Below are positions 51,087-52,534 of a stretch of DNA of 64,000 nucleotides, piece by piece. Origin of the DNA: Savitreella phatthalungensis. Its lineage: Eukaryota. Under the pieces are notes generated by a model that saw nothing but the letters and a program-made list of their open reading frames with translations, had not been told where the DNA came from and did no database searches. Made by a program: the position numbers and the translations under genes. The stretch's first letter is position 1. Each line of letters opens with the position of its first letter. Location: assembly GCA_051599415.1 (NCBI GenBank), contig AP039692.1, positions 1 to 64,000 of the forward strand. Reading direction: 5' to 3'.

Positions 51087-52192
51087 ATGGTTCGAGTGTG
51101 AGTTGAGCATCCTGTAATAACATTGCCATAGTACTAACATGGATTCAGTGGTATCAACGGTTTCGGCCGCATTGGCCGCATTGTGCTTCGCAATGCCCTG
51201 CTTGCAAAGGACGTCGAGGTCGTTGCAATCAACGACCCTTTCATTGACCTCGAGTACATGGTCTACATGCTCAAGTACGACTCGACTCACGGTCGCTACC
51301 CGGGCAAGGTTTCGACCTCTGGCGGCAAGCTGATCGTCGATGGGCATGAGATCGTCTGCTATGCAGAGCGTGACCCAAGTAACATCCCATGGGGCAAGCA
51401 CGAGGTCTACGCTGTCGTTGAGTCGACCGGTGTCTTCACCACTATCGACAAGGCTCAAGCTCACATCAACGGTGGTGCTCAGAAGGTTGTCATCTCTGCC
51501 CCTTCAGCTGATGCACCAATGTTCGTGTGTGGTGTCAACCTCGACGCCTACAAGCCTGACATGAAGATCATCTCGAACGCTTCATGCACCACCAACTGTC
51601 TTGCTCCCTTGGCCAAGATCATTCACGACAAGTTCGGCATCGAGGAGGGTCTCATGACCACTGTCCACGCTACGACTGCCACCCAGAAGACCGTCGATGG
51701 TCCTTCTGCTAAGGACTGGCGTGGTGGCCGTACGGCCGCAGACAACATCATTCCGTCGTCCACTGGTGCTGCCAAGGCCGTCGGAAAGGTCATCCCGTCC
51801 TTGAACGGCAAGCTGACCGGCATGTCGTTCCGCGTGCCCACAACCGACGTCTCCGTTGTCGATCTGACCTGCCGCCTCGCAAAGCCTGCCTCATACGATG
51901 AGATCAAGGCCGCCGTTCGCGAAGCTGCCGACGGACCCCTTGCTGGCATTATGGGCTACACCGAGGACGATGTCGTCTCCCAGGACTTCATCGGCGAGAC
52001 TTGCTCGTCCGTTTTCGATGCCAAGGCTGGTATCGCGCTCTCGCCGCAATTCGTTAAGCTGGTCTCGTGGTACGACAATGAATGGGGATACTCCAAGCGC
52101 GTCGTCGATCTCATTCGCTTCATCGCCACCAAGGAGGTGAGTTCCTGAGCATTCCGCACCCTTTCATTCAACTTGACTGACACACGCAGTAG
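51087..52192 (+). CDS. GPD: Glyceraldehyde-3-phosphate dehydrogenase; exons 51087-51097, 51149-52136, 52190-52192 (stop only); alternative C-termini described in findings
   Basis: [24 protein letters not shown] and [10 protein letters not shown]. Intron 1 is GTGAGT..TACTAAC..CAG (51098-51148). Intron 2 is GTGAGT..ACTGAC..CAG (52137-52189). Confidence 0.97.
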
Positions 52193-52534
52193 AGCAAGAG
52201 CAAGCTTTGATCTCGTATTCTAGCCTCCTAGATCATTTGACAATCAGTTGCGAAACTCCAATAGGTGAGTGTAATTGATGCTGTGCTGCCAGCCATTTTC
52301 TCCACGCGAAGAGTGCTATCGATGTATACACAGCGAGCCAGTTGGTCGGCAGAACGACTTCATTCAGATGCCTGCTCAGAATAAAATCAAAGCCCTGGAG
52401 CTCATGTACTTGAAACTATATGACATGATTAGATACATGGAAGTGCCGCGAACGAGGAGATGCCGGTTAGACGAGACTGTTGCACTGGCATAAGGATATG
52501 TGGGACAATAGCGTACTGCGTCCCAATATGAGGC

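Follow-up and report, generated by a model that had tools for sequence, protein, structure and literature searches.

Freitag, Ast and Bolker reportedly described in 2012 a cryptic PTS1 of Ustilago maydis GAPDH that is reached through alternative splicing. Published accounts place such a signal in U. maydis GAPDH and attribute it to alternative splicing (PMC3798809), which produces the PTS1 form from about 10% of the gapdh mRNA (PMC3798556); the splicing event has been summarised as occurring 'in the Basidiomycota' (PMC3597508). According to the portion of PMC12316961 available, the mechanisms are reversed in A. nidulans, where the PTS1 of GAPDH is obtained by read-through. Both fungal precedents had been named in a preliminary description of the locus reported here, and both are found in these sources (splicing in U. 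maydis, PMC3798556; the reversed mechanisms of A. nidulans, PMC12316961, in excerpt). The effective read-through context in U. maydis is UGA-CU, and UAG or UAA lowered read-through (PMC4207609). The PTS1 consensus is (S/A/C)(K/R/H)(L/M) (PMC3798809).

The closest described case of a stop codon acting in acceptor choice comes from human CFTR. The mutation E831X changes CAGGAG to CAGTAG. When the distal TAG serves as acceptor, the UAG stop is lost and the protein made is functional, which the authors (Hinzpeter et al. 2010) presented as the first experimental evidence for a stop-codon indel at a NAGNAG. In the same paper CAGGAG is classed as 'implausible', with only the proximal site used, and CAGTAG as 'plausible', with both sites used, and acceptor strength is ranked as CAG>TAG>AAG (all from the available part of PMC2951375).

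The window (the whole stretch of DNA analysed, 64 kb) comes from Savitreella phatthalungensis, which belongs to the Taphrinales (Taphrinomycotina, Ascomycota) and is a pineapple-leaf yeast placed near Protomyces and Taphrina in the available part of PMC8877625. Exons 1 and 2 of the gene under study, when joined, encode a protein beginning MVRVGINGF, the same as the best protein match, the annotated 'hypothetical protein PYCC9005_001457 [Savitreella phatthalungensis]' (P0001; 333 aa, 100% identity). Pfam analysis of exon 2 revealed both Gp_dh_N (E 4.2e-37) and Gp_dh_C (E 5.4e-69), which identifies the product as the core glycolytic enzyme GAPDH; the two domains and the full identity to the annotated protein agree with the identification made earlier. 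Exon 1 contributes 4 residues and exon 2 contributes 329, and since these add up to 333, the deposited model must excise the terminal intron at CAG and stop at TAG. The terminal intron is therefore taken to be real, as an annotated 333-aa protein ending ATKE needs its removal. The remaining genes of the window are ordinary fungal housekeeping genes, and GAPDH is the sole glycolytic enzyme found in the 64 kb. The features of the gene are listed in the table below.

Table. Features of the Savitreella phatthalungensis GAPDH gene and of its 3' end (positions in the window)
Feature	Position	Strand	Detail
GAPDH exon 1	51087..51097	+	ATG GTT CGA GT: residues M V R, then bases 1-2 of a V codon
GAPDH intron 1, 51 nt	51098..51148	+	GTGAGT ... 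TACTAAC ... CAG; branch A to AG = 11 nt
GAPDH exon 2	51149..52136	+	codes GINGF...FIATKE; Gp_dh_N and Gp_dh_C domains
End of exon 2, AAG GAG	52131-52136	+	directly before donor
Terminal intron	52137..52189	+	53 nt to proximal CAG; 56 nt to distal TAG at 52192
Terminal-intron donor GTGAGT	52137-52142	+	sequence
TGA closing the intron-retained reading ...ATKEVSS	52146..52148	+	unspliced frame
Putative branch site ACTGAC	52176..52181	+	branch A 52180; motif match only
Tandem acceptor CAG/TAG (NAGNAG)	52187..52192	+	CAG 52187-52189; TAG 52190-52192 = stop and possible distal acceptor
Mini-exon coding part AGC AAG AGC AAG CTT TGA = SKSKL-stop	52193..52210	+	TGA 52208-52210

Short contigs in three public runs matched the GAPDH exon, covering positions 51159-51385, 51540-51734 and 51939-52108. 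Two of them (227 and 170 nt) had no differences from the window and one (195 nt, X3) had a single difference, in a comparison made at 80% likeness in which the run shares were small (0.14, 0.11 and 0.09) and many foreign GAPDH contigs were present too. Judged from these matches, trace amounts of Savitreella phatthalungensis or of a very close strain are present, at low depth, in the runs of other samples. The three runs had a depth of 0 in every bin between 52118 and 52420, and the run search turned up no RNA run containing the window.

The PTS1 lies outside the main GAPDH ORF yet can be brought in frame, with SKSKL placed directly behind the stop: translation of 52190-52210 reads stop-SKSKL-stop. 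SKSKL, with a basic residue at position -4, is a canonical PTS1 by the published consensus (PMC3798809), as had been claimed for it. The preceding CAG TAG is a NAGNAG, with two AGs 3 nt apart, each part of an HAG triplet (H being A, C or T). Joining the pieces by their coordinates and translating them gave ...ATKE with the CAG acceptor, ...ATKESKSKL with the TAG acceptor and ...ATKEVSS from the unspliced sequence, each closed by a stop. These are the three splice outcomes set out in the preliminary description, whose coordinates were all correct to the base in the sequence. It is odd for an intron to be followed by an exon that contributes just a stop codon, and yet the position of this intron is conserved, as described below.

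Three crude intron scans of the window returned candidates that were mostly false positives within long ORFs. Four introns were chosen by eye; each had to have a donor of the form GTGAG[TC] and a branch site reading ACTAAC or ACTGAC, and its removal had to restore the frame or a known protein end. This number is too few for a species-specific rule of acceptor choice. The putative branch A at 52180 is 9 nt from the proximal AG and 12 nt from the distal AG of the terminal GAPDH intron. The other three introns judged credible in the window show spacings of 10, 11 and 19 nt, so the range of 10-19 nt given earlier holds, although for three introns only.

The window as a whole is very intron-poor: over its 64 kb the three scans yielded just four introns that convince, of 47-64 nt, and the midasin frame (27100-39945, 4281 codons) runs without interruption. 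Another of the four introns is found in a Ras-family GTPase gene (Pfam Ras) on the minus strand, which has a 64-nt 3'-terminal intron at 42431-42494 (GTGAGT ... AACTAAC ... TAG). It is followed by CAG TCT AAG AAG CCC AAG TGT ACA ATC CTT TAA, encoding a polybasic stretch and the CaaX box CTIL. This mini-exon sits behind a second NAGNAG (TAG/CAG), and tandem acceptors thus end two of the four credible introns.

The likeliest of the explanations considered, though we regard it as an even call, is that this single GAPDH gene makes both a cytosolic and a cryptic peroxisomal isoform, with the PTS1 form produced via the distal TAG acceptor. Where the proximal CAG (52189) is used, TAG would become the first codon of the last exon and the cytosolic ...ATKE would be made; where the intron is retained, the product would be ...ATKEVSS, cytosolic as well. 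In a minority of transcripts the distal AG (52192), 3 nt downstream, would be used instead, which would remove the stop and bring SKSKL in frame. The resulting ...ATKESKSKL would be recognised by Pex5 and imported into peroxisomes, and by analogy with U. maydis its role may lie in the peroxisomal NAD+/NADH balance. Splicing at the distal AG, the fraction of transcripts so spliced, peroxisomal import and the physiological role are all inferred steps.

An AG very near the branch point may be a weaker acceptor, and the 9-nt spacing, seen against four introns and measured from a putative branch A, hints at a handicap of the proximal AG. The CFTR ranking CAG>TAG>AAG, which concerns the same hexamer in the same phase, leads us to expect that the proximal CAG is dominant and TAG minor, which would agree with the share of about 10% in U. 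maydis. Distal use could even be negligible, because the proximal site has both CAG identity and the first position. TAG as the main acceptor was considered and rejected, since the annotated model and its 333-aa relative P0004 both end ...ATKE.

To compare the C-termini of related proteins, 8000 candidates were scored in a protein search and the best 120 were examined, with one cluster look-up in addition. In the close group (at least 81% identity to the window protein), eleven sequences reach the C-terminal site. Six gene calls from uninterrupted ORFs (P0005, P0006, P0007, P0122, P0009 and P0014) run on as K[EQ]-V-S, which is how a GTNAGY donor reads and how the window itself reads when unspliced (KE-VSS). 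P0019 reads K-V-stop and P0124 ends K-A-stop, one codon past the site. P0001 and P0004 end exactly at the site with ...ATKE, P0004 being a call of 333 aa, full in length, that comes from another organism (87% identity; contig of 1078 nt). P0019 (uninterrupted ORF, 5.7-kb contig) and P0124 (1064-nt contig) are identical at 292 of 292 residues, with V versus A as the last residue. We read these two as unspliced and spliced versions of one gene, and the terminal intron therefore appears to be spliced in a relative. As judged from these protein ends, the donor position of the terminal intron is conserved across the relatives.

The remaining comparison is with P0123, the annotated GAPDH of Protomyces lactucae-debilis (ORY83769.1 / XP_040726064.1, 341 aa), which ends ...MASKQ/ESSSSKL, a serine-rich tail with its break at the site of the terminal intron. 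P0014, the uninterrupted-ORF call that is 97% identical to it (300/308), reads ...MASKQ/VSN-stop, and BLAST pairs KQVSN of P0014 with KQESS of P0123. Going by this annotation, the hidden tag claimed for Savitreella GAPDH has a counterpart in a second Taphrinales genus, namely an SKL tail (...KQ/ESSSSKL) behind the same intron site. Less probably, P0123 is an intronless straight-through model, but that would take several changes, the loss of a stop among them. In the close group P0123 is the one relative that displays the tail (SKL), and the other members end at or inside the intron. A C-terminus fitting the PTS1 consensus [SAC][KRH][LM] was found in 10 of the 120 best GAPDH matches, U. maydis 'isoform A' among them. 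A protein search with the Protomyces C-terminus returned the same small group, in which no additional sequence ending in -SKL was found. The C-terminal 120 aa matched at least 79 metagenome loci; among those listed, all with at most 78% identity, none carries the K[EQ]/VS signature of the Taphrinales group.

Among the close relatives, P0005 and P0006 (337 aa, on 1.7-1.8 kb contigs) have an intact N-terminus (MVKVGINGAGRI...) and read into the terminal intron (...KEVSR and ...KEVSC, respectively); they are either transcripts from which the terminal intron was not removed or genes that lack the 5' intron. P0121, a Taphrinales-type GAPDH fragment in the cluster of P0007, lies on a contig of 42 kb and bears the name 'hypothetical protein MRB53_039785 [Persea americana]'. 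It is probably fungal DNA, from a leaf yeast or endophyte, inside a plant assembly.

The comparison with Protomyces also opens another history, a serious competitor although we think it unlikely, in which the Savitreella tag is a disabled relic. The Taphrinales ancestor would have made a PTS1 form by splicing the terminal intron and a cytosolic form by retaining it; in Savitreella a G-to-T change would then have turned the first, GAG-like codon of the mini-exon into TAG, so that the tag is now essentially unexpressed and its five codons have not yet decayed. GAG and TAG are indeed one base apart, Protomyces P0123 has E exactly at the position of the Savitreella stop, and five codons are a small target that could persist without selection. 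However, P0004, from another organism at 87% identity, also ends ...ATKE, and a stop at a site common to two lineages argues against a fresh accident. The change from CAGGAG to CAGTAG, moreover, moves the acceptor from the proximal-only class to the class with two usable sites (PMC2951375, in excerpt), so that the very mutation postulated need not abolish the PTS1 isoform. The tail is also still a perfect SKL with its basic residue at -4.

It is improbable, in our judgement, that translational read-through accounts for the tag, with the CAG-spliced mRNA as the sole spliced form and a few ribosomes passing UAG to give ...ATKE-X-SKSKL. The PTS1 is in frame with the stop, and read-through is the source of peroxisomal GAPDH in A. 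nidulans, as it is of the PGK and TPI isoforms in U. maydis (PMC12316961, in excerpt; PMC3798809). Here, however, the stop is UAG followed by AGC, which departs from the UGA-CU(A) context. No stable RNA structure was found in the 121 nt around the stop: the MFE, at -20.7 kcal/mol, lay above the mean of -24.4 for shuffled sequences (z +1.12), and 177 of 200 shuffles folded at least as well. Read-through alone also leaves unexplained why an intron is kept exactly before the stop. The preliminary description had offered UAG read-through as a second route to the same signal; this is formally possible but unsupported, with a UAG-A in place of UGA-CU and no unusual RNA structure in this region.

To obtain a chance background, all stop-to-stop segments of at least 3 aa were collected from the six frames of the 64-kb window (n = 3547). 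Twenty-two of them (0.6%) end in [SAC][KRH][LM] and two (0.06%) in SKL, one of which should be the GAPDH segment itself. No consensus PTS1 was found in the read-through tails of 28 long raw ORFs (27 other genes and the unspliced GAPDH frame; 0/28), a check on unspliced ORFs that some true gene ends may escape. The tag is not a post-hoc pick among many genes, as hidden PTS1 signals were already documented for fungal GAPDH. That SKSKL is a chance feature of the 3' UTR, functionless in the past and at present, is very improbable: short motifs do arise by chance and the broad consensus ends 22 of the 3547 segments, but SKL proper is far rarer (2/3547), fungal GAPDH is already known for hidden PTS1 signals, the related genus Protomyces has -SKL at the same place, and the terminal intron is conserved.

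Returning to the splice switch at CAGTAG, we consider the Savitreella gene a credible cryptic-PTS1 GAPDH in a lineage without a previously described case in the literature searched. Searches on NAGNAG acceptors and peroxisomes and on PTS1 GAPDH in Taphrinomycotina found no description of this layout, in which the stop is the distal NAGNAG acceptor before a PTS1; the GAPDH passages of PMC12316961 deal with U. maydis, A. nidulans and Phycomyces, and the supplements of Freitag et al. 2012 might list further species. The novelty implied earlier was nonetheless overstated, because both ingredients, the biology of peroxisomal GAPDH and the working of NAGNAG acceptors, are established and have been published; no new field is opened. 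A broader reading is offered with reserve, as we lean slightly against it: in the Taphrinales the natural GAPDH stop would be the distal AG of CAG/TAG, and the peroxisomal fraction would be set by a spliceosome that wobbles by 3 nt rather than by regulated choice of exons or by leaky ribosomes. Splicing-based peroxisomal GAPDH would then reach from the Basidiomycota to the base of the Ascomycota, being either ancient or reinvented in mirror image, with the donor holding the stop in the Ustilaginomycotina and the acceptor holding it here.

If the switch operates as proposed, a stop codon would serve as splice acceptor in a natural, physiological setting, the sole published case found being a disease modifier. 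Hardly any smaller isoform switch is conceivable, as 3 nt without an additional exon would alter the compartment of an abundant enzyme, and splicing-made peroxisomal GAPDH would extend beyond the Basidiomycota. Standard annotation with one model per gene misses such isoforms; in the Taphrinales the tag is part of the Protomyces annotation and missing from that of Savitreella.

Compared with the known systems, the Savitreella gene resembles U. maydis GAPDH in being the same enzyme with a short 3'-terminal intron and a minor, C-terminally extended PTS1 isoform, which is here a prediction. U. maydis 'isoform A' ends ...KDSAGASRL, and closely related smuts (e.g. Moesziomyces aphidis) have 337-aa forms ending ...KDSA. 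Whereas U. maydis belongs to the Basidiomycota, Savitreella (Taphrinales) belongs to the early-diverging ascomycetes.

In the GAPDH of a metagenome contig resembling Malassezia (L005, positions 1861-1945) the TAG stop was observed to overlap the donor GC/GTAGGT. Unspliced, it reads ...GSA-stop, and removal of a 52- or 55-nt intron, at either CAG of CAGCAG, gives ...GSA(S)GPSRL-stop. Savitreella mirrors this arrangement: its stop lies at the acceptor and both of its products would be spliced, 3 nt apart, whereas in L005 the stop lies in the donor. The mirror-image contrast is drawn with L005, which is of the same subphylum as U. maydis.

With CFTR E831X the Savitreella gene shares the identical hexamer CAGTAG, and in both the exon opens with the TAG as a phase-0 codon. 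The CFTR case (PMC2951375) differs in being a disease mutation softened by the distal site, with a premature stop, no targeting signal and no evolved switch. With U. maydis PGK and TPI and A. nidulans GAPDH it shares a PTS1 in frame behind the stop of a glycolytic enzyme (PMC4207609, PMC3798809); unlike these read-through cases, its stop is UAG-A, immediately after the exon junction and without UGA-CU.

The nearest counterpart is the GAPDH of Protomyces lactucae-debilis, of the same order, with 81-83% identity and the same position of the C-terminal break. Its serine-rich tail ending in SKL, known here from the annotated protein, carries E for the stop and would provide the PTS1 without a 3-nt shift. 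If the proposed switch is real, this single G/T difference, E in Protomyces and a stop in Savitreella, would turn a PTS1 that every splicing event provides into one that depends on splicing at the distal site.
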